The notes beneath the pieces are model-generated. The model had not been told where the DNA came from and made no database searches. It saw only the letters and a program-made list of their open reading frames with translations. Shown piece by piece: positions 3,271-55,317 of a stretch of DNA of 64,000 bases. The position numbers and the translations under genes are program-made. Source of the DNA: Leucoraja ocellata (lineage: Eukaryota); assembly GCA_036785375.1 (NCBI GenBank), contig JAWMAR010000077.1:1550001-1614000 (forward strand), in the 5' to 3' direction. Each line of letters begins with the position of its first letter. Within the stretch, counting starts at the first letter, position 1.

Positions 3271-4188
3271 ATGTCAGGCAAGCTGATTCAGTGCGATGCT
3301 TGTAGTATGTGGGAGGTCAAGGACACCGCTGGTGCCTCTGGCTGCTACAAATGCGAAAAATGCATCCAGGTAGAGCTCCTGAAGGGCCGTGTTGGGGAAC
3401 TGGAGAAGCAAGTGGATGACCTCCGGTTCGTACGAGAAACGGAGTCGTTCCTCGACAAGTCCTACAGTACGATTGTTACACCTAAGGTACTGGAAGGGAG
3501 AAGGTGGGAGACAGTGAGAAAGGGAGGGAAGCATGGAATGCCAACGTCCCCGGGTGATGTACCTCTTGTAAACAGGTTCATCCGCTTAGAAGCTGTTGGG
3601 ACAGAAGACGTGAGCGGCGGACTGGCCTGTGATGCGAATAGGGCTGTTGAGCCAAAACCAAAAAGGCCTAAGGCAGGCAAGGCCATAGTAGTGGGAGACT
3701 CCATCGTGAGAGGTACGGACAGGGGTTTCTGCGGCAACAGACGGGATGCGAGGATGGTGTGCTGCCTTCCCGGTGCCAGGATCCAGGATGTCACGGACAG
3801 AGTGCAGAAAATCCTCAAGGGCGAAGGTGAACATCCGGAAGTGGTAGTGCATGTCGGCACAAACGATGTCGGAAAGAAGGGGATGAATATTCTGCAGCGT
3901 GACTTTAGAGAGCTCGGAAAAATGTTGAAAAGCAGGACCTCCAGGGTTGTTATCTCCGGTTTGCTTCCAGTTCCCCGTGCTGGCGAGAGCAGGAACAGGG
4001 AGATACGGGACCTGAACGTGTGGCTGAGGAACTGGTGCACGGGGCATGGATTTAGATTCTTAGATCACTGGGATCTGTTTTGGGGTAAGGGGGAACTGTA
4101 CAAAAGGGACGGATTGCATCTTAACAGGTGTGGGACCAGCATTCTGGCAGGCAGGTTTGCCACTGCTACACGGGTGGCTTTAAACTGA
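3271..4188 (+). CDS. CR1 ORF1p: zinc finger, coiled coil and SGNH esterase
   Basis: CDAC...CEKC zinc finger, LLKGRVGELEKQVDDL heptads, SGNH blocks VGDS, HVGTND, DGLH; 305 aa. Confidence 0.92.
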   Translation: MSGKLIQCDACSMWEVKDTAGASGCYKCEKCIQVELLKGRVGELEKQVDDLRFVRETESFLDKSYSTIVTPKVLEGRRWETVRKGGKHGMPTSPGDVPLVNRFIRLEAVGTEDVSGGLACDANRAVEPKPKRPKAGKAIVVGDSIVRGTDRGFCGNRRDARMVCCLPGARIQDVTDRVQKILKGEGEHPEVVVHVGTNDVGKKGMNILQRDFRELGKMLKSRTSRVVISGLLPVPRAGESRNREIRDLNVWLRNWCTGHGFRFLDHWDLFWGKGELYKRDGLHLNRCGTSILAGRFATATRVALN

Positions 4189-7100
4189 ATAAGGGGGGTG
4201 AGGTGTTGAATGGGACAGTGGAGGATGGAGTTAAAGGGAAAGGGTTTCTTAAATGTGTGAGCGTAGAGACCGAAGGGTGTAAAATGAGGGTAGAAGAAAT
4301 AGGTAGCAAGGTGAAAAGTAAAAGTGGCAGGCAGACAAAACCAGGGCAAAAATCAAAAAGGGCCACTTTTCAACATAATTGTATAAGGGGTAAGAGTGTT
4401 GTAAAAACAAGCCTGAAGGCTTTGTGTCTCAATGCAAGGAGCATTCGTAATAAGGTGGATGAGTTGAATGTGCAGATAGCTATTAATGACTATGATATAG
4501 TTGGGATCACGGAGACATGGCTCCAGGGTGACCAAGGCTGGGAGCTGAACATCCAGGGATATTCAATATTCAGGAGGGATAGACAGAAAGGAAAAGGAGG
4601 TGGGGTAGCGTTACTGATTAGAGAGGGGATTAATGCAATGGAAAGGAAGGACATTAGTTTGGAGGATGTGGAATCGGTATGGGTAGAGCTGCGAAACACT
4701 AAGGGGCAGAAAACGCTGGTGGGTGTTGTGTACAGGCCACCTAACAGTAGTAGTAAAGTTGGAGATGGTATCAAACAGGAAATTAGAAATGCGTGCGACA
4801 AAGGCAAAACGGTTATAATGGGTGACTTCAATCTACATATAGATTGGGTGAATCAAATTGGCAGGGGTGCTGAGGAAGAGGATTTCTTGGAATGTATGCG
4901 GGATAGTTATCTAAATCAACATGTAGAGGAACCAACGAGAGAGCAGGCTATTTTAGACTGGGTATTGAGTAATGAGGAAGGGTTAGTTAGCAATCTTGTT
5001 GTACGTGCCCCCTTGGGCAAGAGTGACCATAATATGGTTGAGTTCTTCATTAGGATGGAGAGTGACATTGTTAATTCAGAAACAATGGTTCTGAACTTAA
5101 AGAAAGGTAACTTTGAGGGTATGAGACGTGAATTGGCCAAGATTGACTGGCAATTAATTCTAAAAGGGTTGACGGTGGATATGCAATGGAAGACATTTAA
5201 AGACTGCATGGATGAACTACAAAAATTGTTCATCCCAGTTTGGCAAAAGAATAAATCAGGGAAGGTAGTACATCCATGGATAACAAGGGAAATCAGGGAT
5301 AGTATCAAAGCGAAGGATGATGCGTACAAATTAGCCAGAAAAAGCAGCATACCGGAGGACTGGGAGAAATTCAAAGACCAGCAGAGGAGGACAAAGGGCT
5401 TAATTAGGAAAGGGAAAATAGATTATGAAAGAAAACTGGCAGGGAACATAAAAACTGACTGCAAAAGTTTTTATAGATATGTGAAAAGAAAGAGATTAGT
5501 TAAAACAAATGTAGGTCCCTTGCAGTCAGAAACAGGTGAGTTGATCATGGGGAACAAGGATATGGCGGACCAATTGAATAACTACTTTGGTTCCGTCTTC
5601 ACTAAGGAAGACATAAATAATTTTCCGGAAATAGCAGGGGACCGCGGGTCAAAGGAGTTGGAGGAATTGAGTGAAATCCAGGTTAGCCGGGAAGTGGTGT
5701 TGGGTAAATTGAATGGATTAAAGGCCGATAAATCCCCAGGGCCAGATAGGCTGCATCCCAGAGTACTTAAGGAAGTAGCTCCAGAAATAGTGGATGCATT
5801 AGTAATAATCTTTCAAAACTCTTTAGATTCTGGAGTAGTTCCTGAAGATTGGCGGGTAGCAAACGTAACCCCACTTTTTAAGAAGGGAGGGAGAGATAAA
5901 ATGGGGAATTACAGACCAGTTAGTCTAACATCGGTAGTGGGGAAACTGCTAGAGTCAGTTATTAAAGATGGGATAGCAGCACATTTGGAAAGTGGTGAAA
6001 TCATTGGACAAAGTCAGCATGGATTTACGAAAGGTAAATCATGTCTGACGAATCTTATAGAATTTTTCGAGGATGTAACTAGTAGCGTGGATAGGGGAGA
6101 ACCAGTGGATGTGGTGTATCTGGACTTCCAGAAGGCTTTCGACAAGGTCCCACATAAGAGATTAGTATACAAACTTAAAGCACAAGGCATTGGGGGTTCA
6201 GTATTGATGTGGATAGAGAACTGGCTGGCAAACAGGAAGCAAAGAGTAGGAGTAAACGGGTCCTTTTCACAATGGCAGGCAGTGACTAGTGGGGTACCCC
6301 AAGGCTCAGTACTGGGACCCCAGCTATTTACAATATATATTAATGATCTGGATGAGGGAATTGAAGGCAATATCTCCATGTTTGCGGATGACACTAAGCT
6401 GGGGGGCAGTGTTAGCTGTGAGGAGGATGCTAGGAGACTGCAGGGTGACTTGGATAGGCTGGGTGAGTGGGCAAATGTTTGGCAGATGCAGTATAATGTG
6501 GATAAATGTGAGGTTATCCATTTTGGTGGCAAAAACAGGACAGCAGACTATTATCTAAATGGTGGCCGATTGGGAAAGGGGGAGATGCAGCGAGACCTGG
6601 GTGTCATGGTACACCAGTCATTGAAGGTAGGCATGCAGGTGCAGCAGGCAGTAAAGAAAGCGAATGGTATGTTAGCTTTCATTGCAAAAGGATTTGAGTA
6701 TAGGAGCAGAGAGGTTCTACTGCAGTTGTACAGAGTCTTGGTGAGACCACACCTGGAGTATTGCGTACAGTTTTGGTCTCCAAATCTGAGGAAGGACATT
6801 ATTGCCATAGAGGGAGTGCAGAGACGGTTCACCAGACTGATTCCTGGGATGTCAGGACTGTCTTATGAAGAAAGACTGGATAGGCTTGGTTTATACTCTC
6901 TAGAATTTAGAAGATTGAGAGGGGATCTTATAGAAACTTACAAAATTCTTAAGGGGTTGGACAGGCTAGATGCAGGAAGATTGTTCCCGATGTTAGGGAA
7001 GTCCAGGACAAGGGGTCACAGCTTAAGGATAAAGGGGAAATCCTTTAAAACCGAGATGAGAAGAACTTTTTTCACGCAGAGAGTGGTGAATCTCTGGAAC

Positions 7101-7220
7101 TCTCTGCCACAGAGGGTAGTTGAGGCCAGTTCATTGGCTATATTTAAGAGGGAGTTAGATGTGGCCCTTGTGGCTAAGGGGATCAGGGGGTATGGAGAGA
7201 AGGCAGGTACGGGATACTGA
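4179..7220 (+). CDS. CR1 ORF2p: APE endonuclease and reverse transcriptase (frame open from 4128; first in-frame ATG 4284; possibly entered by -1 frameshift at 4179-4185)
   Basis: APE motifs LNARS, ITETW, GDFN, LDWVL, SDHN; RT motifs YRPVSL, LDFQKAFD, GVPQGSVLGP, FADD; no internal stops. Confidence 0.95.
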   Translation, partial: FKLNKGGEVLNGTVEDGVKGKGFLKCVSVETEGCKMRVEEIGSKVKSKSGRQTKPGQKSKRATFQHNCIRGKSVVKTSLKALCLNARSIRNKVDELNVQIAINDYDIVGITETWLQGDQGWELNIQGYSIFRRDRQKGKGGGVALLIREGINAMERKDISLEDVESVWVELRNTKGQKTLVGVVYRPPNSSSKVGDGIKQEIRNACDKGKTVIMGDFNLHIDWVNQIGRGAEEEDFLECMRDSYLNQHVEEPTREQAILDWVLSNEEGLVSNLVVRAPLGKSDHNMVEFFIRMESDIVNSETMVLNLKKGNFEGMRRELAKIDWQLILKGLTVDMQWKTFKDCMDELQKLFIPVWQKNKSGKVVHPWITREIRDSIKAKDDAYKLARKSSIPEDWEKFKDQQRRTKGLIRKGKIDYERKLAGNIKTDCKSFYRYVKRKRLVKTNVGPLQSETGELIMGNKDMADQLNNYFGSVFTKEDINNFPEIAGDRGSKELEELSEIQVSREVVLGKLNGLKADKSPGPDRLHPRVLKEVAPEIVDALVIIFQNSLDSGVVPEDWRVANVTPLFKKGGRDKMGNYRPVSLTSVVGKLLESVIKDGIAAHLESGEIIGQSQHGFTKGKSCLTNLIEFFEDVTSSVDRGEPVDVVYLDFQKAFDKVPHKRLVYKLKAQGIGGSVLMWIENWLANRKQRVGVNGSFSQWQAVTSGVPQGSVLGPQLFTIYINDLDEGIEGNISMFADDTKLGGSVSCEEDARRLQGDLDRLGEWANVWQMQYNVDKCEVIHFGGKNRTADYYLNGGRLGKGEMQRDLGVMVHQSLKVGMQVQQAVKKANGMLAFIAKGFEYRSREVLLQLYRVLVRPHLEYCVQFWSPNLRKDIIAIEGVQRRFTRLIPGMSGLSYEERLDRLGLYSLEFRRLRGDLIETYKILKGLDRLDAGRLFPMLGKSRTRGHSLRIKGKSFKTEMRRTFFTQRVVNLWNSLPQRVVEASSLAIFKRELDVALVAKGIRGYGEKAGTGY

Positions 7221-7317: not shown

Positions 7318-7565
7318 ACTCTCGAATGCCGATCCAAAGGCATAATTTCCAGGAGCATGTTTTTGGATCAATCTGATAGCTCCCGAGTGCCGGGAATTGA
7401 CGGCAGGACCTCCTTTCACTCGTTTTAAATTACACCCTCGCCCTTAATTGGTCGCCCCACTTAAATGCACCACGCCACCCTACCTGAACATATTTTTTTT
7501 TTTAAATTAACGTAAAACTGTATATATATTGTGTCGGAGCCGTCAGTTTGATCGCGCCTTGCAAG
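7318..7565 (+). promoter_or_regulatory. SFRP4 proximal promoter / 5' UTR
   Basis: CpG-rich unique sequence with inverted CCAAT (ATTGG 7447-7451), CGCCC boxes and TATATATA at 7521 upstream of ATG 7566. Confidence 0.5.
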
Positions 7566-8007
7566 ATGTTCCCAATGATTTGTGCGATGTGCTTTTGGCT
7601 TGTTGCGCGCGTCTTCGTACAGGGAGCACTTTGCGAACCGATTAAGATCCCGATGTGCGAGGCGATGCCCTGGAATATCACGAGAATGCCCAACCATCTC
7701 CATCACAACACCCAAGAAAATGCTATTCTGGCTATAGAGCAGTACGTGGAATTAGTGGATACCAGTTGCAGTCCATTGCTGCGCTTCTTTCTCTGTGCAA
7801 TGTACGCGCCCATCTGCACCTTTGAATTTCTTCACGATCCTGTTAAACCATGTAAGTCAGTTTGCCAGAGAGCAAGAGACGGGTGCGAGCCTATTTTGAA
7901 AATATACAATCACAGCTGGCCCGAGATTCTAGCTTGCAATGACTTGCCCGAATACGACCGAGGAGTCTGCATCTCTCCCGAGGCAATTGTCACTGATTTA
8001 GCCGAAG
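7566..8007 (+). CDS. SFRP4: Secreted frizzled-related protein 4, exon 1 (signal peptide and Frizzled CRD)
   Basis: [11 protein letters not shown]...[27 protein letters not shown]...[33 protein letters not shown]...[10 protein letters not shown]; 10-Cys CRD; donor G|GTGAG at 8007/8008, phase 1. Confidence 0.95.
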
Positions 8008-8313
8008 GTGAGATATAAAATGTTTCCTCATTTTTATTGACGAGCCTTGTGAATATTTGGAGACGCCCAACAGTCCATCAACAAACGCATTAAAATGTGG
8101 ATGACTTCCCTTTTAAAAAGTGTGGATTTTATTTCAAATCACTTCGTTGTAATTTGTCATTTCCATCAGGAAAAAGGATGTGATCATCTATTAATTCGTT
8201 GATGAAAATGTCACTGGTGTTGCAAGAGTATACCACACCTTGCTATTCAGTTATTTATGCATAAGCCAATGTGTAGAATAAACTCAACCTTATGCTTTTG
8301 CTCCAACTTCCAG

Positions 8314-8724: not shown

Positions 8725-11065
8725 CTACCTGAAATGAGAGAAATCAATATTCATACCATTGGGCTGTAAGCTGCCCAAGCGAAATATGAGATGCTGTTCC
8801 TCCAATTCGCTTTTAGCCCCACTCTGACAGTGGAGGAGACCTAGGACAGAAAAGTCTGTGTAGGAATGGGAAGGAGAATTAAAGCATTTGGCAACTGGGA
8901 GATCAGATAGGTTCAGGTGGGCTGAGTAAAGGTGTTCAGCGAAACGATCGCCCAGTCTACTTTTGGTCAAGAATCCACATCTTGAACAATGGACACAGTA
9001 GATGAGGTTGGAGGAGGTGCAGGTGAACCTCTGCCTAACCTGAAAGGACTGTCAGGGTCCCTGGACAGAGTTGAGGGAGGAGGTATATGGACAGGTGTTG
9101 TAACTTCTGCAGCTGCAGAGGGAGGTACCTGGGGAGGGGTGGGTGCTTTGGGTGGGAAGGGATGAGTTAACCAGGGAGTTGCAGAGTGAACCTTTTTTGC
9201 GGAAGGTGGAAAGTGGTGAAGATGGGAAAATGTGGCTAGTGGTGGGATCCCGTTGGAGGTGGCAGAAATCATGGAAGATTATGTGTTGTATTCGATGGCT
9301 GATGGGATGTAAGGTAAGGGCACTGTCTCTGTTGCGACTAGGGGAAGGGGAGCAAGGGAAGAGCTGCGGGGTACTGAGGAGACACGAGTGAGGGCCTCAT
9401 CTATGATGGGAGAGGGGAACCCCCATTCCCTAAAGAATGAGGACATCTCAGATGTTCTAGTATGGAACACCTCATCTTGGTGCAGCTGCGGCATAGACAG
9501 AGGAATTGGGAGTAGGGGATAGAGTCTTTGCAGGATGCAGGGTGGGAAGAAGTGTAGTCAAGATAGTTGTGGGAGTCAGTGGGTTTGTAATAGTCAGTCA
9601 ATCGTCTATTTCCTGTGATGGAGACTGTGAGATCAAGAAAGGGGAGGGAGGTGTCAGAGATGGTCCAAGTAAATTTGAGTGCGGGATGAAAATTAGTGGT
9701 GAAGTTGATGAAATCCACTTGAGTTCTGCATGGGTGCAGGAGGCATGAGTTCTGCATGGGTGCAGGAGGCATGAGTTCTGCATGGGTGCAGGAGGCATGA
9801 GCAGCATGGGTGCAGGAGGCATGAGCTGCATGGGTGCAGGAGGCATGAGTTCTGCATGGGTGCAGGAGGCATGAGCAGCATGGGTGCAGGAGGCATGAGC
9901 TGCATGGGTGCAGGAGGCATGAGTTCTGCATGGGTGCAGGAGGCATGAGCAGCATGGGTGCAGGAGGCATGAGCTGCATGGGTGCAGGAGGCATGAGTTC
10001 TGCATGGGTGCAGGAGGTAGCACCAATTCAATCATCAATGTAATGGAGATAGAGTTCGGGGATAAAGTTTGGGGATAGGGCCAGTGTACGCCTGGAACAG
10101 GGATTGTTCAACGTACCCTACAAAGAGGCAGGCATAGCTGGGGCCCATGCGGGTGCACATAGCTACGCCTTAGACTCAGAGGAAGTGGGAGGAGTGAAAA
10201 GAGAAGTTGTTAAGGGTGAGGACCAGCTCCGCTAGGCGGAATAGAGTGTTAGTAGTGGGAAATTGGATGGTTCTGCGGTCAAGGAAGAAACGGAGGGCTT
10301 TAAGGCCATCCTGGTGGGGGATGGAGGTGGCGAATGACTGAACGTCCATAGTAAAGATGAGGTAGTGGGGGCTTGAAAAGCAGAAGTCATTCAAGAGACA
10401 AAGTGCAAGTGAGGTATCTTGAGACATAGGGTGGGAGAGATTGGACCGTGGGGATAGGATGGAGTCGAGGTACGTGGAAAGCATTTCCGTGGGACAGGAG
10501 CAGGCAGAAACAATGGGTCTGCCAGGGCACTTGTGTTTATGGATTTTGGAGAGAAGGTAAAACCTGGCTGTGGGGGGCTGGGAAACGATAAGGTTGGAGG
10601 CTGTGGAAGGCAGACAGCCAGAAGTGATGAAATCAGATATGTTGTGTGAGATTAAGACCTGATGCTCATCTGTGGGATCTTGGTCCAAGGGCAAGGAGGA
10701 GTAGGTGTCTGAGAGTTCACGCCTGGCCTCAGCCCGCTAGAGGTCTGCGCGCCGGACTACCATGGCACCTCCCTTGTCGGCAGGTTTGATTATAATGTCG
10801 GGATGGCTGCAGAGTGAGCAGAGGGCTGTACGTTCAGAGGGGTTGAGGTTAGAGTACGTAAGGGGAGTGGAAAAGTTGAGACGGTTGATGTCACGTTGGC
10901 ATTTAGAAATAAAGAGGTCTAGAGAGAGTAGAAGGCCGTTCTGGGTAGTCCAAGAAGAGGGGGACCGGTGGAGACGGGATCATCACTGGGTGGTGAGGAC
11001 TCCTTCCCATAGAAAAAGGCACGGAGGTGGAGGCGACTCATTGAGGTGGGGGCAGAGGGGAACAT
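8725..11065 (-). mobile_element. Decayed Penelope-like element (RT and GIY-YIG endonuclease) in SFRP4 intron 2
   Basis: FYLLSKIHK...PGRPIVS, TMDVQS, LTLNNFSF, YIDD (about 10031-10042), LPFLDL, YYKPTDSH; GIY-YIG C-terminus RLGDRFAEH...EEQHLIFRLGSLQPNGMNIDFS. Confidence 0.9.
9721..10017. repeat. Minisatellite of 12 units of 24-26 bp with a 74-bp higher-order period
   Basis: A=GAGTTCTGCATGGGTGCAGGAGGCAT, B=GAGCAGCATGG..., C=GAGCTGCATGG...; order A A (A B C)x3 A'. Confidence 0.95.
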
Positions 11066-11885
11066 CTTCTTGTGTTTGAGGCAGCAGAGGTTATGTAACA
11101 CACTCCAGGCGCTGTAGGCAGTTCAATGTGCTGTTGTCGAGGGCCGTGAGATCTACCCCTCCACTAGGGGGACGGAGGACAGCGCAGTCGACAATGACGT
11201 GCTGCACTGTTTGTTGGTCTGCTCTACACATGCAGGCTGCTGTTGAACTCAGCCCCCAGCGATGCATGTTGGCATTGAACCGGCCGCCCCCTGTACGGAG
11301 CCGGTTCAGGGCGACCCATTCTTTGCGGGGCAGGTCCGATCCCGGTGGGGCTGTGGTGTTCGGTGCAACAGTGAATTGAGGAGGTCGCGAAGTCTGTTCC
11401 CAGCTGGTTCTCCATGCTCCTAGTGTGTTGAAACCAGAGCCACAGAGGGTCGTTGCATGACGGGAGAAGGGGCAACGAGATGACAGGCGTTGAGGTCCCA
11501 GTTGCTGGGAGTCCTGGGCGAGGTGGTGCAACAGATTTTTGGCGTCCAATGAGGCCTTGCAGACCAGCCTGTGGGTGAAGTACTCTGCGCGGAGATTGGT
11601 GGGTGCGATACCTGCGAGCACCGGTGGAAGATCTGTCGGTATTGGGCGTGGGCAGCCGGTGATGATCCGCGTGGTGCTGTTGAGGATGGCGTCTAACTTG
11701 CTAGAATGAGCGTTGCGGCACCATGCTGGGGCGGCGTACTCAGCGGCACTGTACACAAGTGCAAGAGCAATGGTTCGGAGAGTAGATGTCCTGGAGCCCC
11801 ATGACGTTCCAGCCAAGCAACGCGCCAAGACTTTAGCATGGAGAGCTCCAAGGTGTTGCTTGTAGGTCAGCTGCCGATCTAGAGA
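11066..11885 (-). mobile_element. Vingi/Ingi-like (I group) LINE 3' fragment
   Basis: LDRQLTYKQH...WG...LRTIALALVYSAAEYAAPAW...LNRLRTG...CMC...QTVQHVIVDC (CCHC knuckle); stop at 11091, short AAGAAGA tail. Confidence 0.7.
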
Positions 11886-12237
11886 CAGAGGGGAACAAAG
11901 GCGAGGTTTCCAAGGGCAAGTAGGAGGAGGTGTCTGAGAGTTGTCGCCTGGCCTCAGCCCTGTAGTGGTCTGCTGGTCTGGCCTTGCCAAGGCAGCGTGA
12001 GGTATAAATGGAGTCAATAGAAGGGAGATTGGTTTGTGCGATGGTCTGGGCTGTGTCAGTTTGGCTTGCACGCGGCTTGTTATTATCCATTATTCTATTT
12101 CATAAAGACACTGTAAAATACAATGGGAACATTTATTGCCTTCTTTAAACTACACCTATAAAATATTTGCTGCATTTTTTCATTAAAATCTTCCCTTCAT
12201 TCAAAAAAATTTATAATGGCATCTTAATTTTCCACAG

Positions 12238-12303: not shown

Positions 12304-13348
12304 GTAAGTGGTGACTGCCTATTTATTAAGTGGTATTTTGTAATCTATAATAGCAGAATCCCTACCGATGGTTTTTTTGTCCAGATCTTGAACAATCTAT
12401 GACTAATAGACAGGGTTCAGGGGTCAATCACACTCTGGAGTCTATTTGATTGTCGAGATGCACAATTCTATTTTATAATTTCAGAAACTGGAAACTGACA
12501 GCATGTTCAGAAACTGTCATGCACCTATCCCAATGAGTTCATAAATGCTTTTATGTCCTTTGTTCTTTTGTTGCATTTGAAATTAATATAATAAACTCAT
12601 CAGATTTGAACTGACTACATCTTGGATTTGGTAACTTCAACAGTAGGTATTTCCTTTACCTTGCGAAATCTCCCCTAGAAACTAATATGTTAATTTTCTG
12701 GCACATTTAAGAATGTAGACCACGTGCCTCTCAAACTCGTTTGGTTGCAACCCAGCCCAAAATGAAGGTTTAAATATCATAGAGTAATAGAAATTTATGC
12801 ACAGAAAGGAGTCCATTTGATCAATGATATTCATCCTGGCCAAGAAAGAATTAATTAAGATTTATCCTGCTCTCTAATCTTTAACCTTCTGGGTTTTAAC
12901 ATCAAAAACTATACATTATTGGAAGGGAGATTTCTCACACATTTATCATTATGCTTTTTCATAGTGAAATTTTCTACTAGTAATTAATGCAAAGGTCGAG
13001 CTGAAGTCTTTAAAGGGCTTGAACAGCTACGTTCATTTTGAAGAGAGTTCTTCTAAGGTGCAAAAGGAGAGGGAGAATGACTGTTGTTGCATTTGTTTAG
13101 CCTGACTTTAAACCAAGGCAAAAGGGATTATTTTAATAGTCCATTAATCCAATATACCCATGCAAAATTGTGCCAATAAGAATCATTATAAGTAAGTTAT
13201 TGCTTGTATAGTCATAGAGTCATAGAGTGATACAGTGTGGAAACAGGCCCTTTGGCCCAAATTGCCCACACCGGCCAATATGTCCCAGCTACCCTAGTCC
13301 CACCTGCCAGCATTTGGTGTATATCCTCCAAACCTGCCTTATCTATGT

Positions 13349-13806
13349 GGAGTATCAGACTAAGCGGAGGTTGGGCGATCGTTTCGCCAAACACCTCCGC
13401 TCAGTCCGCAATAACCTACCTGAACTCCCGGTGGCCCAGCACTTCAACTCCCCCTCCCATTCTCAATCCGACCTCTCTGTCCTGGGTTTCCTCCATTGCC
13501 AGAGTGAGCAACACCGGAAATTGGAGGAACAGCACCTCATATTCCGCCTGGGCAGCTTGTGTCCTGATGGCATGAACGTTGAATTCTCCCAATTTTGCTA
13601 GCCCTTGCTGTCTCCTCCCCTTCCTTAACCCTTGAGCTGTCTCCTCCCATCCCCCCGCCCTCGGGCTCCTCTTCCTCCCTTTTTCCTTCCTTCTCCCCCC
13701 CACCCCCCATCAGTCTGAAGAAGGGTTTCGGCCCGAAACGTCGCCTATTTCCTTCGCTCCATAGATGCTGCTGCACCCGCTGAGTTTCTCCAGCAATTTT
13801 GTGTAC
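13349..13806 (+). mobile_element. Young 5'-truncated Penelope element (GIY-YIG C-terminus and terminal repeat), 16-bp TSD
   Basis: QTKRRLGDRFAKH...EEQHLIFRLGSL; TSD CCTGCCTTATCTATGT at 13333-13348 and 13807-13822. Confidence 0.92.
13711..13746 (+). ncRNA. Minimal type I hammerhead ribozyme motif in Penelope terminus
   Basis: CUGAAGA-A-[GGGU UUCG GCCC]-GAAAC-GUC; palindromic ACGU helix III; helix I weak. Confidence 0.65.
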
Positions 13807-19532: not shown

Positions 19533-22500
19533 CATAACCATATAACCATATAACAATTACAGCACGGAAACAGGCCATCTCGGCCCTTCTAGTCCGTGCC
19601 GAACACTTACTCTCGCCTAGTCCCATCTACCTGCACTCAGACCATAACCTTCCATTCCTTTCCCGTCCATATACCTATCCAATTTATTTTTAAATGATAA
19701 AATCGAACCTGCCTCCACCACTTCCACTGGAAGCTCATTCCACACAGCTACCACTCTCTGAGTAAAGAAGTCCCCCCTCATGTTACCCCTAAACTTTTGT
19801 CCCTTAATTCTCAAATCACGTCCTCTTGTTTGAATCTTCCCTACTCTCAATGGAAAAAGCTTATCCACATCAACTCTGTCTATCCCTCTCATAATTTTAA
19901 AGACCTCTATCAAGTCCCCCTTAACCTTCTGCGCTCCAAAGAATAAAGAGCTATCTTGTTCAACCTTTCTCTGTAACTTAGGTGCTGAAACCCAGGCAAC
20001 ATTCTAGTAAATCTCTTCTGTACTCTCTCTGTTTTGTTGACATCTTTGCTATAATTTGGCGACCAAAATTGTACACCATATTCCAGACTTGGCCTCGCCA
20101 ATGCCTTGTACAATTTTTACATTACATCCCAACTTCTATACTTCTATGATTTATAAAGGCCAGCACACCAAAAGCTTTCTTTACCACCCTATCTACATGA
20201 GATTCCACCTTCAGGGAACTACGCACAGTTATTCCTAGATCCCTCTGTTCAACTGCATTCCTCAATTCGCTACCATTTACCATGTATGTCCTATTTTGAT
20301 TTGTCCTGCCAAGATGTAGCACCTCTCACTTATCAGCATTAAACTCCATCTGCCATCTTTCAGCCCACTCTCCAAATGACCTAAATCTCTCTGTAGACTT
20401 TGAAAATCGACTTCATTATCCACAACAATACCAATCTTAGTATCATCTGCATACTTACTAATCCAATTTACCACACCATCATCCAGATCATTGATGCATA
20501 TGACAAACAACAGTGGACCCAACACAGATCCCTGAGGCACCCCACTAGTCACCGGCCTCCAACCTGACAACAGTTATCCACCATTACTCTTGGGTATCTC
20601 CCATTCAGCCACTGTTGAATCCATCTTGCTACCCCACTATTAATACTCAACAATTGAACCTTCTTAACCAACCTTCCATGTGGAACCTTGTCAAAGGCCT
20701 TACTGAAGTGCATATAGACAACATCCACCGCTTTACCCTCATCAATTTCCCTAATAACCTCTTCAAAAAATTCAAGAAGATTAGTCAAACATGACCTTCC
20801 AGGCACAAATCTATGTTGACTGTTCTTAATCAGACCCTGTTTATCGAGATGATTAAATATATTATCTCTAAGTATTCTTTCCATTAATTTGCCGACCACT
20901 GACGTCAAACTAACAGGTCTATAATTGCTAGGTTTACTCTTAGAACCTTTTTTAAACAATAGAACAACATGCGCAGTACGCCAATCCTCCGGCACCATTC
21001 CTGTTTCTAATGATATTTGAAATATTTCTGTCATAGCCCCTGCTATTTCTACACTAACTTCTCTCAATGTCCTAGGGAATATCCTGTCAGGACCTGGAGA
21101 CTTATCTACTTTTATATTTTTCAAAAGTGTCAGTACTTCCTCTTCTTTGATCCTCATAGTTTATATAGCTACCCTACTTGTTTCCCTTACCTCACATAAT
21201 TCAATATCCTTCTCCTTGGTGAATACCGAAGAAAAGAAATTGTTCAATATCTCCCCCATCTCTTTTGGCTCTGCAGATAGCTGTCCACTCTGACTCTCTA
21301 ATGGACCAATTTTATCCCTCGTTATCCTTTTGCTATTAATATAGCTGTAGAAACCCTTTGGATTTACTTTCACCTTACTTGGCAAAGCAACCTCATATCT
21401 TCTTTTAGCTTTTCTAATTTCTTTCTTAAGATTCTTTTTACATTCTTTATACTCCTCAAGCACCAAATTTACTCCATGCTGCCTATAATTATTGTAGAGC
21501 TCTCTCTTTTTCCAAACCGTGTCCAATTTCCCTTGAAAACCATGGCTCTTTCCAATTATTACTCTTTCCTTTCAACTGAACAGGGACATAAATATTCTGT
21601 ACTCTTAAAATGTCACCTTTAAATGACCTCCATTTCTCTACAACATTCTTCCCATAAAACAAAATGTCCCAATTCACTCCTTTTAAATCCTTTCGCATCT
21701 CCTCAAAGTTAGCCTTTCTCCAATCACAAATCTCAACCCTAGGTCCAGTTCTGACCTTCTCCATAATTATATTGAAACTAATGGTATTGTGATCACTGGA
21801 TCCGAAGTGCTCCCCACCACATACCTCCGTCACCTGTCCTGTCTCATTTCCTAACAGGAGGTCCAGCACTGCCCCTTCTCTAGTAGGTACCTCTTAGTAT
21901 GGCTGCAAAAAACTATCCTGCACACATTTTACAAACTACAAACCATCCATCCCTTTTACAGAATGTTTCCCAGTCTAAGTGTGGAAAATTGAAATCTCCC
22001 ACAATCACTACCTTGTGCTTACTACTAATAGCTGCAATCTCCTTACATATTTGCTCTTCCAATTCTCGCTCCCCATTAGGCAGTCTATAATACACCCCTA
22101 TAAGTGTTGCTACACCTTTCCCATTTCTCAGTTCCACCCAAATAGCCTCCCTAGACGAGCCCTCTAATCTATCCTGCCAAAGCACTGCTGTAATATCTTC
22201 CCTGACAAGCAATGCAACACCACCACCTCTTGCCCCTCCAATTCTATCACACCTGAAGCAACGAAATCCTGGAATATTTAGTTTCCAATCACAGCCTTCC
22301 TGCAACCATGTTTCACTAATCGCCACAGCACCATACTTCCAGGTGTCAATCCAGGCTCTAACCTCATCCACCTTTCTTACAATGCTCCTAGCATTAAAAT
22401 ATACACATTTACCCACTACCTCTTATTCTCTGTTTATTATATTTTTCTTCTTTCCCCCCTACATGTTGGGTCCGAGTGCTTCCCTTCTCTGCCTCCTGCC

Positions 22501-22971
22501 TCACACTCTGTCTACTAGATTTCTCTATTTGAGTCCCTCCCCCCAAACGTTCTAGTTTAAAGTCTCCCCAGTAGCCTTTGCAAATCTCCCCACCAGGATA
22601 TTGGTTCCCCTCGTGTTCAAGTGCAACCCGTCCTTTTTGTACAGGTCACACCTTCCCCAAAAGAGGTCCCAATGATCCATAAACTTGAATCCCTGCCCTC
22701 TGCACCAATCCCTGAGCCACGCATTTATCCTCCACCTTGCTCCATTCCTACTCTCACTGTCGCGTGGCACAGGCAGTATTCCTGAGATTGTTACTTTTGC
22801 GGTCCTTCTCCTTAACACTCTTCCTAACTCCCTAAATTCTCCTTTTAGGACATCTTCTCTTTTTCTACCTATGTCATTGGTACCTATATGTACCACAACC
22901 TCTGGCTCCTCTCCCTCCCATTTCAGGATTTCTTGGACACGTTCAGACACATCCCAGACCCTGGCACCAGG
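19533..22971 (-). mobile_element. Second CR1 family, near full-length and frameshifted (3' half of ORF1 esterase and whole ORF2)
   Basis: HIGTND/DGLH esterase (22552-22950); FNARS, SETW, GDFN, SDHN, GVPQGS, YADD in successive frames; (TATATGGT)n-type tail at about 19533-19552. Confidence 0.93.
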
Positions 22972-22974
22972 GTA

Positions 22975-23047
22975 TTTTCTATATATATTCTATAGCAAGG
23001 CAACATATTTTCTATAGCAAGGCGACATATTTTCTATAGCAAGGCAA
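22975..23047. repeat. Three tandem copies of a unit of about 22 bp at the CR1 5' junction
   Basis: ATATTTTCTATAGCAAGGCAAC repeated. Confidence 0.85.
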
Positions 23048-23210
23048 CCAGATGTGTACAATCACTCCTTTGAGAAACAATGTTTTTTTCTCATGTCACT
23101 CTTGCTTCTTTACCTGATCATCTTATTTCTGTTAACCCTAGTTCTTGACATTCCAAAAAAAAATATGCTCCAGCTTCTCCAATCTAAACACAATACAATA
23201 CAATGCTATA

Positions 23211-24269: not shown

Positions 24270-27200
24270 GTGGGGAAGTAGCTATTCTTGAACCTGGTCG
24301 TTGCAGTCTTCAGGCTCCTGTGCCTTCTACCTGAAGGTATCGGGGAGATGACTGCGATAAATCCACTCGATGGAAGGAAGGTCAGAGCCGATGATGGACT
24401 GGGCAGTGTTTACTACTTTTTGAAGTATTTTCCTCTCCAGGGCGCTCAATTTGCCGAACCAAGCCACGATGCAACCGGTCAACATGCTCTCTACTGTGCA
24501 CCTGTAGAAGTTAGAGAGAGTCCTCCTTGACAAACCGACTCTCCATAATCTTCTCAGGAAGTAGAGGCGCTGATGTGCTTTTTTAATAATTGCATCAGTG
24601 TTCTCGGACCAGGAAAGATCTTCAGAGATGTGCATGCCCAGGAATTTGAAGCTCTTGACCCTTTCAACCATCGACCCGTTGGTATAAACGGGACTGTGGG
24701 TCCCCATCCTACTCCTTCCAAAGTCCACAATCAGTTCCTTGGTTTTGTTGGTGTTGAGGGCCAGGTTATTGTGCTGGCACCATATGGACAGTCGCTTGAT
24801 CTCTCTTCTATACTCTGACTCATCCCCATCAGTGATACATCCCACAACAGTGGTGTCGTCAGCGAACTTGATGATGGCGTTTGCACTATGACCAGCTATG
24901 CATTCATGTGTATAGAGTGAGTACAGCAGGGGGCTGAGCACGCAGCCTTGAGGTGCTCCCGTGCTGATTGTTATTGAGGCTGACACATTTCCACCAATAC
25001 GAACAGACTGTGGTCTGTGGATGTGGTTCTGGACTTTATAAACTCCACCATCAATAGTGTCACCTCCCTCAAACAGGTGACCATATACCCGAATCAGAAG
25101 CCATGGATGAACAGCGAGGTCAGGCTACTGCTGAAAGCACGGGACACCGCTTTCAGGTCAGGCGATGCTCGAGCCTACAGTTCATCCAGGGCTAACCTGA
25201 AGAGGGGCATCAGGAAGGCCAAGCACTGCCATAAGCTCAGGATTGAGGAGCACTTCAACAACAACTCCGACCCCCGACGCATGTGGCAAGGCATCCAGGC
25301 CATCACGGACTACAGACCCTCCAACATCACCCCCACATCCAGCGACGCCTCCTTCCTTGAGGAGCTGAATCACTTCTATGGCCGCTTCGACAGGGACAAT
25401 CTAGAGACAGCCATCAAGGCTGTGCTACCTGCCGATCACCAACCCCTCACACTCACCCCCTACGACGTGTACGTGGCACTGAGTAGGACTAATGCACGTA
25501 AGGCTGCTGGCCCTGACGGCATCCCCGGGCGCGTGCTCAGTGCCTGTGCTGCGCAGCTGACAGACGTCTGGACTGACACCTTCAACCTGTCACTTGCCCA
25601 AGCAGTTGTCCCCACTTGCCTTAAAGCCACCTCCATCGTGCCAGTGCCAAAACACTCCACTGCGGCAAGCCTCAACGACTTCCGCCCAGTTGCACTTACC
25701 CCCATCATCACCAAGTGCTTCGAGAGGCTGGTCCTGGCACACCTCAAAAGCTGCCTACCCCCCACACTGGATCCCTATCAGTTTGCCTATCGCAAGAACA
25801 GGAGTACGGAGGATGCCATCTCAACGGCACTTCACTCCGCCCTCTCCCACCTTGACAACAGAGACACTTATGTAAGAATGCTGTTCATCGATTACAGCTC
25901 AGCATTCAACACCATTATTCCATCAAAACTGATCACCAAACTCGGTAACCTGGGCATCGACCCCTCCCTCTGCAACTGGATACTGGACTTTCTAACCAAC
26001 AGACCCCAGTGTGAGGTTAGACAAGCACACCTCTTCAACCCTCACTCTGAACACCGGCGTTCCTCAGGGCTGTGTGCTGAGCCCCCTCCTCTACTCCCTC
26101 TTCACCTATGACTGCACACCTGTACATGGTACTAACACCATCATCAAGTATGCAGATGATACAACGGTGATTGGCCTCATCAGCAACAACGATGAGCTGG
26201 CCTACAGGGAGGAGGTCCAGCACTTAGCAGCATGGTGCGCTGACAACAACCTGGCCCTTAACTCCAAGAAGACCAAGGAGCTCATTGTAGACTTCAGGAA
26301 GTCCAGAGGCGGCACGCACACCCCCATCCACATTAACGGGACGGAGGTGGAACGTGTTTCTAGCTTCAGGTTCCTGGGAGTCAACATCTCCGATGACCTC
26401 TCTTGGACCCACAATACCTCTACTCTGATCAAGAAGGCTCATCAGCGTCTCTTCTTCCTGAGAAGACTGAAGAAGGTCCATCTGTCTCCTCAGATCCTGG
26501 TGAACTTCTACCGCTGCACCATCGAGAGCATCCTTACCAACTGCATCACAGTATGGTATGGCAACTGCTCTGTCTCCGACCGGAAGGCATTGCAGAGGGT
26601 GGTGAAAATTGCCCAACGCATCACCGGTTCCACGCTCCCCTCCATTGAGTCTGTCCAAAGCAAGCGCTGTCTGCGGAGGGCGCTCAGCATCGCCAAGGAC
26701 TGCTCTCACCCCAACCATGGACTGTTTACCCTCCTACCATCCGGGAGGCGCTACAGGTCTCTCCGCTGCCGAACCAGCAGGTCGAGGAACAGCTTCTTTC
26801 CGGCCGCTGTCACTCTACTAAACAACGTACCTCGGTGACTGCCAATCACCCCCCCCCCCCCGGACACTTATTATTTATTTTTTTTATTCAAAATCGTTTG
26901 CTATGTCGCTCTTCAAAGGAGATGCTAAATGCATTTCGTTGTCTCTGTACTGTACACTGACAATGACAATTAAAATTGAATCTGAATGAGGAAGTCGAGG
27001 ATCCAATTGCAGAGGGATGCACAGAGACCCAGTTCTGCGAGTTTGGTAACCAGCTTGGAGGGGATGATTGTGTTAAATGCCGAGCTGTAATCAATGAATA
27101 ACAGCCTGACATATGAGTTTTTGTTGTCCAAGTGGTCCAGAGCGGAGTGGAGAGCCAGCGAGATCGCATCCACCGTTGATCTGTTGTGGCGGTAAGCGAA

Positions 27201-28735
27201 CTGCAGTGGGTCCAGGTTTTTGTCAAGGTATGAGTTGATGTGCACCATGATCAGCCTCTCAAAGCACTTCATCACCACAGACGTTAGTGCCACTGGTCGA
27301 TAGTCATTGAGGCACGTCACCTTGCTCTTCTTGGGCACCGGTATTATTGATGCCCCTTTAAAGCAGGTGAGAGCCTCAGACCTCAGAAGTGAGAGGTTGA
27401 AAATGTCCGTAAAAACTCCAGCCAGTTGGTCCGCACAGGTTTTAAAACACACCCAGGCGCTTTTCGAGGGTTCATCCCTCTGAAGTATCTTCTGACATCG
27501 GCCTCTGTGACTGTGACCGAAATACCATCACGGCGAATGGGGGCTCGGGAAGGCACATCAGTGTTCTCGGTATCAAAGCGTGCGTAAAACGCATTGAGCT
27601 CGTCAGGGAGCTGCCTCCTGATTTTGCCTTGTAGGAGGTGATTGCATTCAGGCCCCGCCACAGCTGCCGAACATCCGCCTCATCCTCCAGCTTTGAGCAG
27701 AAGTCCCTTTTGGGCTTTATGGTGGCCTTACCAAGGTCATATCTGGATTTCTTGTAGACCTCTGCATCTCCATGCATAAATGCTCGGGATCTGGACTTCA
27801 GAAGAATGTGGAACTCATGGTTCATCCAAGGCTTCTGGTTAGGAAACACTCGGAAGGTTTTTGTTGGGATGCAGTCCTCCACTCATTTCTTAACGAAGTC
27901 TGTAGTGACTGTGGCGTATTCGTTCAGGCCCGTTGACGAGTCCCTGAACATTGCTCAGTCTACAGACTCCAAACAGTCTTGGAGTTGTTCCTCTGCCCCC
28001 CACCCCCCCTCCCCCCCAACCAGCTCTGTACAGTCCTCACCTCTGGGGGTGCACTCTTCAATTGCTGCCTGTAGGCAGGAAGCAGCAGTATGGTCGGATT
28101 TACCCAAGTAAGGGCGAGGGATAAAGCGATAGGTATCCTTGATGGTCATACAGCAGTGGTCGAGGGTGTTTGATCCTCTGGTACTGCAGGAGACATGTCG
28201 GTGGAAGTTAGGGAGCAATTTCTTAAGGTTGGCTTTGTTGAAGTTCCCGGCTATGGTGGTAAATCGTCTGGTGCTTGTTGACCACGGCGTGCAGCTCCCC
28301 CAGTGCCAGGCGGACGTCTGCCTGGGGAGGGATGTAGACCGCGGTCAGGGTGATGAAGGTGAATTCACTCGGTAGGTAGAAGGGACTGCACTTCACAGCC
28401 AGATGTTCAAGGTGTGGAGAGCAGGAGTTGGATAGGACTGCCACGTCTGAGCACCACGCAGAGTTGACCATGAGGCAGACGCCCCCTCCTCTCCCTTTCC
28501 CAGATGCCATTGTACGGTCCATGCGATGGATGGAGAAACCTTTAGGCTGGACTGCTGAGTTTGGGGAGCTGGGGGTGAGCCATGTCTCTGTGAACACAGA
28601 GCATTCCCTCAGCTCCCTTTGGTAAAGCAGCCTTGCTCCTAAGTCCTCCACTTTATTTTCAAGCAACTGTACATTGGCCAGGAGGATGGTAGGGAGAGGG
28701 AGTTAAAGTCTCCCGCGCTTCAGTCTTACCTGAAG
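24270..28735 (-). mobile_element. Rex1/Babar LINE (APE and RT, decayed), split by a nested insertion
   Basis: FTETW, GRGGGVC, VYIPP, SDH (APE); [34 protein letters not shown] (RT); the halves rejoin co-linearly with the + copy at 49800-49880. Confidence 0.92.
25020..26987 (+). mobile_element. Young 5'-truncated Rex1/Babar LINE of a different family, nested in opposite orientation
   Basis: ORFs 25017-26111 and 26011-26838 (single frameshift near 26010), KYADD; TTGAATCTGAAT tail. Confidence 0.93.
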
Positions 28736-43324: not shown

Positions 43325-45697
43325 ACCAACGAGAAAGCAGGCTATTCGAGACTGGGTATTGAGTAATGAGGAAGGGTTAGTTAGCAGTCTTGTTGTGCGT
43401 GGCCTCTTGGGCAAGAACGACCATAATATGGTTGAGTTCTTCATTAGGATGGAGAGTGACATAGTTAATTCAGAAACAAGGGTTCTGAACATAAAGAAAG
43501 GTAACTTTGAGGGTATGAGACGTGAATTGGCCAAGATAGACTGGCAATTGATTCTTAATGGGTTGACGGTGGATATGCAATGGAAGGCATTTAAAGATTG
43601 CATGGATGAACTACAACAATTGTTCATCCCAGTTTGGCAAAAGAATGAATCAGGGAAGGTAGTGCATCCGTGGATAACAAGGGAAATCAGGGACAGTATC
43701 AAATCAAAAGATGAAGCATACAAATTAGCCAGAAAAAGCAGCCTACCAGAGGACTGGGAGAAATTCAGAGTCCAGCAGAGGAGGACAAAGGGCTTAATTA
43801 GGAAAGGGAAAGTAGATTATGAAAGAAAACTGGCAGGGAACATAAAAACTGACTGCAAACGTTTTTATAGATATGTGAAGAAAAAAAGATTAGTTAAAAC
43901 AAATGTAGGTCCCTTGCAGTCAGAAACAGGTGAATTGATCATGGGGAACAAGGACATGGCAGACCAATTGAATAACTACTTTGGTTCTGTCTTCACTAAG
44001 GAAGACATAAATAATCTTCCAGAAATAGCAGGGGACCGGGGGTCATACGAGATGGAGGAACTGAGTGAAATCCAGGTTATTCGGGAAGTTGTGTTAGGTA
44101 AATTGAATGGTTTAAAGGCCGATAAATCCCCAGGGCCAGATAGGCTGCATCCCAGTGTACTTAAGGAAGTAGCCCCAGAAATTGTGGATGCATTAGTGAT
44201 AATTTTTCAAAACTCTTTAGATTCTGGAGTAGTTCCTGATGATTGGAGGGTAGTTAATGTAACCCCACTTTTTAAAAAGGGAGGGAGTGAGAAAACGGGG
44301 AATTACAGACCAGTTAGTCTAACATCGGTAGTGGGGGAAATGATAGTCAGTTATTAAAGATGGGATAGCAGCACATTTGGAAAGTGGTGAAATCATTGGA
44401 CAAAGTCAGCATGGATTTATGAAAAGTAAATCATGTCTGATGAATCTTATATAATTTTTCGAGAATGTAACTAGTAGAGTGGATAAGGGAGAACCAGTGG
44501 ATATGTTATATCTGGACTTTCAGAAGGCTTTCGACATGGCCCCACATAAGAGATTAGTATACAAACTTAAAGCACCTGGTATTGGGGGTTCAGTATTGAT
44601 GTGGATAGAGAACTGGCTGGCAGACAGGAAGCAAAGAGTAGGAGTAAACGGGTCCTTTTAACAATGGCAGGCAGTGACTAGTGGGGTACTGCAAGGCTCA
44701 GTGCTGGGACCCCAGCTATTTACAATATATATTAATGATTTGGACGAGGGAATTGAATGCAACATCTTCAAGTTTGCAAATGACACGAAGCTGGGGGCAG
44801 TGTTAGCTGTGACGAGGATGCTAGGAGGCTGCAAGGTGACTTGGATAGGTTGGGTGAGTGGGCAAATGCATGGCAGATGCAGTATAATGTGGATAAATGT
44901 GAGGTTGTCCACTTTGGAAGCAAGAACAGGAAAGTAGACTATTATCTGAATGGTGGCCAATTTGGAAAAGAGGAGATGCAACGAGACCTGGGTGTCATGG
45001 TACACCAGTCATTGAAAGTAGGCATGCAGGTGCATCAGGCAGTGAAGAAAGCGAATGGTATGTTAGCATTCATAGCAAAAGTATTTGAATATAGGAGCAG
45101 GGAGGTCCTACTGCAGTTGTGCAGGGTCTTGGTGAGACCACACCTGGAGTATTGTGTACAGTTTTGGTCTCCTAATCTGAGGAAAGATATTCTTGTCACA
45201 GAGGGGGTACAGAGAAGGTTCGCCAGACTGGTTCCTGGAATGGCAGGACTTTCATATGAAGAACGATTGGATAGACTCGGCTTGTACTCGCTAGAATTTA
45301 GAAGATTGAGGGGGGATCTTATAGAAACTTACAAAATTCTTAAGGGGTTAGACAGGCTAGATGCAGGAAGATTGTTCCCGATGTTGGGGAAGTCCAGAAC
45401 AAGGGGTCACAGTTTAAGGATAAGGGGGAAGTCTTTTAGGACCGAGATGAGAAACACATTTTTCACACAGAGTGGTGAATCTGTGGAATTCTCTGCCACA
45501 GAAGGTAGTTGAGGCCAGTTCAGTGGCTATATTTAAGAAGGAGTTAGATGTGGCCCTTGTGGCTAAAGGGATCAAGGGGTATGGAGAGAAGGCAGGAGGT
45601 ACAGGATACTGAGTTGGATGATCAGCCATGATCATGTTGAATGGCGGTGCAGGCTCGAAGGGCCGAATGGCCTACTCCTGCACCTGTTTTCTATGTT
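43325..45697 (+). mobile_element. 5'-truncated CR1 (same family as 3140-7317) with several disabling mutations
   Basis: ORFs 43359-44357, 44479-44661 and 44841-45512 co-linear with ORF2; FANDT replaces FADDT. Confidence 0.95.
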
Positions 45698-49504: not shown

Positions 49505-50887
49505 TGTGATGTGCCTTAATGACTATCGACCTGTAGCACTAACACCTGTGGTGATGAATTGCTTTGAGAGGTTGATCATGGCACAAATCAACTTCTACCT
49601 CGACAAAAACCTGGACCCACTGCAGTTCGCTTACCGCCACAACGGATCAACGGTGGATGCGATCTCGCTGGCCCTCCACTCCGCTCTGGACCACTTGGAC
49701 AACAAAAACTCATATGTCAGGCTGTTATTCATTGATTAATGAATTGCTCGGCATTTAATACTATCATCCCCTCTAAGCTGGTTACCAAACTCGCAGAAAT
49801 GGGTCTCTGCGCATCCCTCTGTAATTGGATCCTCGACTTCCTCATTCACAGACCACAGTCTGTTCGTATTGGTGGGAATGTGTCAGCCTCGATAACAATC
49901 AGCATGGGAGCACCTCAAGGCTGCGTGCTCTGCCCCCTGCTGTACTCACTCTATACTCATGACTGCGTAGCCGGTCATAGTGCGAACTCCATCATCAAGT
50001 TCGCTGACGACACCACTGTTGTGGGACATATCACTGATGGGGATGAGTCAGAGTATAGAAGAGAGATCGAGCAACTGTCCATATGGTGCCAGCACAATAA
50101 CTTGGCCCTCAGCACCAACAAAACCAAGGAACTGATTGTGGACTTCGGAATGAGTAAGAGGGGGACCCACAGTCCCGTTTATATCAACGGGTCGATGGTT
50201 GAAAGGGTCAAGAGCTTCAAATTCCTGGGCGTGCACATCTCTGAAGATCTTTCCTGGTCCGAGAACACTGATGCAATTATCAAGAAAGCACATCAGCGCC
50301 TCTACTTCCTGAGAAGATTACGGAAAGTCGGTTTGTCAAGGAGGACTCTCTCTAACTTCTATAGGTGCACAGTAGAGAGCATGCTGACCGGTTGCATCGT
50401 GGCTTGGTTTCGGCAATTGAGCGCCCTGGAGAGGAAAAGACTTCAAAAAGTAGTAAACACTGCCTAGTCCATCATCAGCTCTGACCTTCCTTCCATCGAG
50501 GGGATTTATCGCAGTCGCTGCCTCAAAAAGGCTGGCAGTATCATCAAAGACCCACACGATCCTGGCCATACACTCACCTCCCTGCTACCTTCAGGTAGAA
50601 GGTACAGGAGCCTGAAGACTGCAACGACCAGGTTCAGGAATAGCTACTTCCCCACTGCCAGCAGGCTATTAAACCTGGCTCAGACAAAACTCTGAACATT
50701 AATAACCCATTATATGTTATTTGCACTTTAACAGTTTATTTATTCATGTGTGTGTATATTTATATAATGGCATATGGACACACTGATCTGTTTTGTAGTC
50801 AATGCCTATTATGTTCTATGCTGAAGCAAAGCAAGAATTTCATTGTCCTATCAGGGACACATGACAATAAACTCACTTGAACTTGAA
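49505..50887 (+). mobile_element. 5'-truncated Rex1/Babar LINE (same family as 24270-28735)
   Basis: [22 protein letters not shown]; AATAAA followed by CTTGAACTTGAA tail. Confidence 0.93.
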
Positions 50888-54396: not shown

Positions 54397-54618
54397 TGCT
54401 GAAAAATAAATGCCCATTTTAGCAAGGCGAAACGCCCCAAGAGGTTCACGGTTGATCTCAAAATACAGTCAAACAGCCGACCAAAGTCATGGTTTTAAAG
54501 GCGGGAGTGGCTCAAGTGGTGGGGAGATTTAAGAGGGCAGGTGATGGGAATGGAATTCCCGTGCCACGATACACACGGCTGAGGCTCATCCACCGTCGGT
54601 GAGAAAGCTAATATCTCT

Positions 54619-55237: not shown

Positions 55238-55317
55238 GTAGGTAGTTCAGGTTTGGCTCATTTTAAGGTTCATGTTATCCCAAAAGGTCGGTAGTAACTG
55301 CGGTATTCCTTCAACAG

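Follow-up and report, generated by a model that had tools for sequence, protein, structure and literature searches.

The window, i.e. the whole stretch of 64,000 nucleotides of Leucoraja ocellata DNA that was analysed, carries on its minus strand a CR1 LINE copy of a family designated family 2. The copy displays 92.3% identity over 3455 bp to the intact element L412, and its parts are as follows.

19534..22972, minus strand: family-2 CR1 LINE copy, dead, truncated at its 5' end within ORF1 and interrupted by many stops and frameshifts
22552..22972, minus strand: 3' part of ORF1, SGNH/GDSL esterase domain (PF13472, E 2.3e-13) ending ETLN-stop; the open reading frame spans 22552..22989
22555..22561, minus strand: slippery heptamer U_UUA_AAC in the phase of ORF1 (29 of 30 family loci; 14 of 14 representatives)
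22552..22554, minus strand: ORF1 stop TAG directly 3' of the heptamer (other families have TGA or TAA)
22535..22544, minus strand: G-run GGGGGGAGGG, starting 10 nt after the heptamer, a candidate non-canonical stimulator
22412..22561, minus strand: linker in the -1 frame, 50 open codons, no ATG (dN/dS ~0.5 between subfamilies)
22409..22412, minus strand: site of a copy-specific 5-nt deletion and the TAA arising from it (absent bases present in 28 of 30 loci)
21913..22410, minus strand: start of the APE endonuclease domain (PF03372, E 2.2e-11), off the -1 frame only in the window copy and its duplicate
19617..21912, minus strand: remaining ORF2 (end of the endonuclease, reverse transcriptase), broken into ORF fragments
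19534..19616, minus strand: 3' UTR with terminal short tandem repeats of the TATATGGT type

A copy of another family, family 1, lies on the plus strand of the window.

3271..4188, plus strand: family-1 ORF1 (Cys-rich N-terminus, esterase), ending ALN-TGA
4179..4185, plus strand: family-1 heptamer U_UUA_AAC (30 of 30 near-identical loci)
4179..7220, plus strand: family-1 ORF2, read in the -1 frame and uninterrupted across APE and reverse transcriptase, with an in-frame ATG at 4284 (codon 36)
4242..4256, plus strand: family-2-type endonuclease-start relic (GFLKC) inside the family-1 linker, a recombination scar

Both window families encode an SGNH/GDSL ORF1 with PF13472, followed by an ORF2 in which endonuclease precedes reverse transcriptase (PF03372 in family 2; PF03372 and PF00078 in family 1); the [FY]ADD motif is found at ORF2 codon 707 of the intact elements L412 and L415. 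A 3' end of short tandem repeats, the expected form for CR1 LINEs, and frequent 5' truncation are both present, as for CR1 with an esterase ORF1. The best ORF1 homologue in a protein search is 97% identical and comes from Leucoraja erinacea, and the nearest solved relative of ORF2 is human L1 ORF2p; no solved structure was matched by sequence search to the family-2 N-terminal 300 amino acids. The domain layout and the homologues, rather than reverse transcriptase phylogeny against L2, point to CR1 as the probable label. An imperfect tandem repeat of ~21 bases (~22980-23050, minus strand) adjoins the truncation point of the element upstream.

Other mobile-element remnants in the window include 5'-truncated CR1 ORF2 copies, mostly near family 1 (62250-63575, 43326-45512, 53999-54409, 1662-2171), and fragments resembling reverse transcriptase or endonuclease of other LINE or Penelope-like kinds (24327-28702, 49736-50467, 10176-12089, 13218-13601). 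An ORF at 55242-55886 (plus strand) has a V-domain-like end with a DYYC motif, which we take to be of immunoglobulin/T-cell-receptor type, and an exon-like ORF at 7506-8018 (plus strand) presumably resembles the cysteine-rich domain of secreted frizzled-related proteins. On our assumption, the two may mark by synteny an SFRP4/T-cell-receptor-gamma neighbourhood.

The minus strand reads TTTAAAC at 22561-22555, phased T TTA AAC in ORF1, followed by TAG (22554-22552); letters and phase thus agree with the original prediction that ORF1 ends TTA AAC TAG. The G-run, which had been placed directly after the stop, lies instead at 22544-22535, 10 nt past the heptamer. The -1 frame is open as anticipated, although its length from the heptamer is 50 codons rather than about 48, and no in-frame ATG occurs across them, again as claimed. 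It ends at TAA (22411-22409), which overlaps the endonuclease start KCVYFNARS (from 22410); the predicted stop at the beginning of the APE domain is therefore correct, and in the window copy the domain shares the frame of ORF1. The openness of the linker exceeds chance expectation: that of family 2 stayed open in ~3% of 500 dinucleotide shuffles, and frames 0 and +1 contain 4-6 stops each.

A loss of 5 nt from the window copy had also been predicted. A search of the 3.4-Gb genome returned 2957 candidates, of which 40 were scored and 30 fetched, these being the best-scoring copies and not a random sample. Bases are found at the place of the deletion in 28 of the 30 (27 TTTCT, 1 TTTAT), confirming the prediction; the exact heptamer is present in 29, and 28 place the endonuclease in the -1 frame, all of them without a linker ATG; the linker is fully open in 17. 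The majority sequence of the 30 loci contains no stop, and its first Met is at codon 269. The original interpretation thus withstood the refuting conditions set for it, namely a linker ATG or stop in the family sequence and an APE domain off the -1 frame. The two loci without the 5 nt are the window itself (L001) and L002; since their flanks past the truncation point are 96.7% identical over 2747 bp, they represent one duplicated insertion and the loss is a single event. In the poly(A) RNA run X24 (2026), whose reads lie on both strands and may not be the transcript of the element itself, the 5 nt are carried by 195 reads at a depth of 365. Ten of the 30 loci form one cluster of at least 99% identity, and 21 clusters remain, with a median identity of 93.7%; a young burst was rejected as the origin of the ten near-identical loci, as the four checked share flanks.

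Intact elements were sought by matching a stretch of family-2 protein; 11 of the 150 matches scored have open frames of at least 950 codons, and 10 were fetched. Nine of these display the exact heptamer with 972-986 open -1 codons, and in the tenth (L421) the first base of the heptamer is changed. In six of the nine the first Met does not come until codon 243 or 267, and in the other three it is at codon 26. In L412 and L415, two separate insertions that are 97.6% identical (L416 being a duplicate of L412), both reading frames are open: an ORF1 of 311 amino acids is followed by 986 open -1 codons, with the first ORF2 Met at codon 243, and the 62 codons of the -1 frame that precede the heptamer are likewise free of Met. 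In L413 and L414, ORF1 is broken and a Met lies upstream in the -1 frame.

The endonuclease landmarks of these elements are the catalytic Asn at codon 58, SETW at 84, YRPP at 160 and GDFN at 190, with catalytic roles that we assign from general knowledge of APE domains. As these motifs lie before codon 243, initiation at the first AUG would leave out the greater part of the endonuclease, and ORF2 calls taken from the first AUG lose it likewise in family 2. Comparison of the AUG-less subfamilies L415 and L413 gave dN/dS values of 0.14 for APE, 0.20 for the rest of ORF2 and 0.5 for the linker. The family-2 ORF2 is under purifying selection, and the values of 0.14-0.20 indicate that the AUG-less ORF2 was therefore translated. 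The earlier claim that no AUG precedes the endonuclease holds for the subfamily in the window; it fails for sub-branch 2b and for families 1, 3 and 4.

Conservation of the junction was followed over five families of the genome, found by divergent ORF1 protein searches and a position-blind sample of 1 Mb. The heptamer occurs in 30 of 30 near-identical loci of family 1 (endonuclease in the -1 frame in all 30), in 30 of 30 of family 3 (26 of 30), in 20 of 20 of family 4 (13 of 20) and in 23 of 30 of the old family 5, where the majority is -1 and the exact modal length is kept in 14 of 30 copies. A +1 layout suggested by two old family-5 copies was rejected, since 30 loci show indels in the G-run and a -1 majority. 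The position-blind sample has the heptamer at 7 of 9 junctions, one of the others being decayed and one deleted. Among 82 loci from metagenomes and a viral collection, six end ORF1 in heptamer-stop and one more is disturbed by an indel, the rest having other junctions or no motif. In L061, L063, L064 and L066 the endonuclease is also in the -1 frame. Separately, 21 of the 30 loci L173-L202, which may be duplicates or separate insertions, keep the heptamer with AAG in place of the ORF1 stop, which extends ORF1 by 17 codons.

Fourteen representatives (8 from the own genome, 6 from metagenomes, decayed, deleted and indel cases being left out) were compared by codon; they share ancestry, and three rows are of one family, so that 14 of 14 does not amount to 14 independent trials. 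T-TTA-AAC-T is invariant in all 14, down to ~30% amino-acid identity. The residue before Leu takes 10 forms, all encoded by NNT codons (Val from one old copy), and all three stop codons occur after the heptamer, the stop triplet being Leu in the -1 frame in every case. Among 101 aligned columns, only the terminal Leu and Asn have fully invariant third positions. The codons of DGLHL vary freely, its Leu using 5-6 codons, and TTA accounts for 29 of 159 Leu codons. Furthermore, G is invariant in 14 of 14 at three positions 10-12 nt past the heptamer, the first of which falls on the third base of a -1 codon. Dual coding was rejected as the cause, because positions 5' of the heptamer vary and there is no -1 start upstream.

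The ORF1 proteins exhibit the same pattern. An LN end is found in 65 of 83 homologues with an esterase motif near their end, spanning sharks, rays, coelacanth, a teleost, frogs and a turtle. Residues that have no NNT codon (E, K, Q, M, W) occupy position -3 in 0 of 65 as compared to 35 of 65 at position -4 (P ~0.001 on 29 deduplicated tails). The second family had been offered as independent support for frameshifting, and this holds insofar as the site is conserved across diverged families (ORF1 3' ends are ~67% and endonucleases ~64% identical in nucleotides), but not in the sense of separate origins. In a distant group of ORF1 proteins (P0092, P0100-P0120; alignment A2, n=14), the esterase is followed by a Lys-Asn pair that hardly varies and then by tails that do; judged from these proteins, the pair could be the trace of an A_AAA_AAC slip site.

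Recombination has exchanged ORF1 between families without disturbing the frame. L353 is family 2 (92%) as far as +163 after the heptamer and resembles family 4 from +165 onward, and family 1 matches this chimera from its +64, which corresponds to the string at 4242-4256. The string cited in the original prediction is thus present, but as a relic of a family-2-type endonuclease start acquired by recombination and not as a chance match. The ORF1 ends of family 1, family 4 and L353 are 68-75% identical, and their endonucleases 93-96%. Three ORF1s (67-75% identical) hence ride on one ORF2; the crossovers lie on the 3' side, beyond both slip site and G-run, and the frame is kept. The chimera of family-2 ORF1 and linker with family-1/4 ORF2 (L353/L188, L400-L411) has been amplified to at least 40 copies spanning the joint, with 97-100% identity across copies at the joint; of 12 chimera loci, 5 could be scored at the junction, and 3 of these are in the -1 frame.

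The region downstream of the slip site was searched for a stimulator. Folding z-scores for 70 and 120 nt after the stop range from -1.5 to +1.9 in the 14 representatives, that of the window copy being -1.08, and neither a hairpin nor a pseudoknot was found 5-9 nt downstream in these sequences. Across 13 elements, no long-range pairing of the G-run was detected that they have in common, and only 2 of the 14 representatives have a predicted G-quadruplex. The heptamer follows the pattern X_XXY_YYZ in the 0-frame phase, and the -1 ORF is open from it for 972-986 codons in 9 of the 10 long-ORF loci fetched, though not in the window copy. Because the stem-loop or pseudoknot of a canonical site is not found downstream, the slip site is filed, from its sequence features, as a candidate non-canonical -1 frameshift site and not as a canonical signal.

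A -1 frameshift on the heptamer, which would yield an ORF1-ORF2 fusion in family-2 CR1, is the reading best suited to these observations, and a probability of about three in four is assigned to it from the sequence comparisons. It is the simplest account because it covers the exact XXXYYYZ in phase, the free flanking residue, the constant -1 position of ORF2 and the AUG-less intact elements. A minority of ribosomes would slip back one base on U_UUA_AAC, tRNA-Leu and tRNA-Asn re-pairing from UUA AAC to UUU AAA. The stop would then be decoded as CUA or CUG (Leu), giving a Leu-Asn-Leu junction and a fusion of ~1295 amino acids (311 + 984) with a loosely constrained linker between its parts. Most ribosomes would terminate and release ORF1p, so that the ratio of ORF1p to fusion would be high, as in Gag/Gag-Pol. 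Speculatively, the pause might be supplied by the adjacent stop together with the G-run, acting as a protein-binding site or a G-quadruplex, and the efficiency would be low.

Termination-reinitiation, in which ORF2 would be made separately from an overlapping or downstream AUG (or a non-AUG codon in family 2), with the heptamer as a termination-coupled signal or a by-product, is the strongest alternative, though an improbable one. An in-frame linker Met is found at codon 26 in sub-branch 2b, 36 in family 1, 39 in family 3, and 4 and 20 in family 4; family 4 (L303-L322, L354) combines the heptamer with a TAATG stop-start overlap whose ATG is in the ORF2 frame, and may use both routes. In the family-2 linker, the near-cognate codons TTG (6), ATA (12) and GTG (20) would offer non-AUG starts, and the available text of PMC5972666 describes stop-restart coupling in SART1, termination-reinitiation in L1 and calicivirus reinitiation that tolerates changes of the start codon. 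Against this, the AUGs stand at unrelated places (codons 4, 20, 26, 36, 39, 64) and are absent from the linkers of family 2, L061, L063, L064 and L066, and from family 5 before codon 68. The stretch before the AUG is nevertheless open in family 1 (35 codons), family 3 (38) and the chimera L353 (63), the other frames being stop-rich. An AUG overlapping or beside the ORF1 stop, as in SART1, is absent in family 2 and found only in family 4, and a calicivirus-type UGGGA 40-90 nt upstream of the stop occurs in 3 of 14 representatives, none of family 2. Reinitiation, moreover, requires neither a fixed -1 phase nor an exact XXXYYYZ. The linker itself is 35-112 codons long, and the heptamer-to-catalytic-Asn distance ranges from 105 to 336 nt in rows with the -1 layout.

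The heptamer, stop and G-run might instead form an RNA signal unrelated to decoding (splicing, transcriptional slippage, an internal promoter or IRES, packaging), ORF2 being made from a processed or separate message; nucleotide conservation alone names no process and no G-run partner was found, but this explanation is quite unlikely. The AG of the candidate splice acceptor is missing in the TGA and TAA families, X24 reads support none of 15 joints among the 29 listed, and no heptamer indel is listed in X24 at a 10% threshold. Such a signal would also leave the constant ORF1 phase and the -1 ORF2 unexplained. Coincidence, i.e. a Leu-Asn needed at the ORF1 C-terminus whose codons reflect shared ancestry or AT bias, accords with the conservation of LN at the protein level and the relatedness of the families, but is largely refuted by the codon comparison of the 14 representatives, where other invariant residues have saturated synonymous sites and the invariant T sits in the codon of a free residue, and is very improbable.

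Other esterase-ORF1 LINEs join their frames differently. In 21 metagenome loci picked from the 82 (L062, L067, L069, L073, L084 and others within L088-L140), ORF1 ends in TGA followed by C in 20, and frame 0 is open for at least 80 codons in 18. These TGA-C junctions, open mostly into the endonuclease, appear to be of readthrough type and may be an alternative route to the same fusion. ORF2 of the zebrafish element ZfL2-1 is reportedly made by stop suppression. In L323-L328, ORF1 and ORF2 share a single frame of up to 1311 codons; such copies (6 of 8 fetched loci, 3 of them open for 1311 codons) do not count towards a fused lineage, since the single frame is due to one extra G in an ORF1 G-run whose length is anywhere from 6 to 15 in 14 rows, and since single-frame copies were preferred by the search.

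The heptamer U_UUA_AAC is described as among the most shifty on mammalian ribosomes (PMC5009743) and is identical to that of nidovirus ORF1a/1b (IBV, PRRSV; PMC9000960, PMC5009743), which differs in having a pseudoknot 5-9 nt downstream, whereas CR1 has none and the 0-frame stop is immediate. In PRRSV nsp2, a short low-complexity motif, and no RNA structure, lies 10 nt past the slip site (PMC9000960), the same spacing as that of the CR1 G-run; that motif is, however, C-rich and bound by PCBP and nsp1-beta, so that the likeness is one of spacing only. Among LINEs, precedents are the APE-type TRE5-A and TRE3-A of Dictyostelium, for which a figure legend in the review PMC5911963 gives a -1 frameshift as required for ORF2; they belong to another clade with another ORF1 and are targeted to tRNA genes. 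SART1, mammalian L1 and the Paramecium LINE groups 1-3 likewise have bicistronic mRNAs (PMC5972666, PMC3708506, PMC5405496), but in the available parts of these sources SART1 and L1 have a separate ORF2 start, the Paramecium groups a proposed +1 frameshift, reinitiation or readthrough, and none a -1 heptamer.

Vertebrate esterase CR1 (type IVB, CR1 subgroup 7; PMC4120745) likewise has an esterase ORF1, an APE-RT ORF2 and a short tandem repeat 3' end, and the word 'frameshift' is absent from the available text of that paper. The route of LINE ORF2 translation is stated to be unclear (PMC3708506). A literature search returned no report of CR1 frameshifting or of the CR1 ORF2 route; its coverage did not extend to the first publications on chicken and turtle CR1 or to repeat-database entries, where an earlier remark is possible. 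No CR1 frameshift is reported in the accessible portions of PMC5009743, PMC3708506, 10.1101/788562, PMC4120745, PMC11835228, PMC4255032, PMC6609765, PMC5911963, PMC5405496, PMC5972666 and PMC9000960. What is added here are the intact AUG-less elements and the ORF1 swaps that preserve the frame.

The junction is real and conserved, and it is likely a recoding signal. Homologous ORF1s occur in sharks, rays, coelacanth, teleost, frogs, turtle and lizard, and CR1, among the dominant repeats in many vertebrate genomes, makes up 11.8% of chicken chromosomes according to the available part of PMC11835228. A wider extension, tentative and on balance doubtful, would be that esterase CR1s from cartilaginous fishes to tetrapods and beyond obtain their polymerase solely within a Gag-Pol-like fusion, the adjacent stop and the G-run driving a -1 frameshift that needs no RNA structure, that this cassette travels with ORF1 and that sister LINEs use UGA-C readthrough. 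The stimulator would be the first natural one of its kind; natural G-quadruplex frameshift stimulators were not known in 2016, as the accessible text of PMC5009743 has it, and a conserved frameshift without downstream structure would be a rare type of signal. The defined slip site makes CR1 ORF2 translation testable with a single reporter. If the frameshift is true, ORF2p would carry the esterase ORF1p at its N-terminus, and models of particle assembly and cis preference, as well as the design of CR1 constructs, would change.
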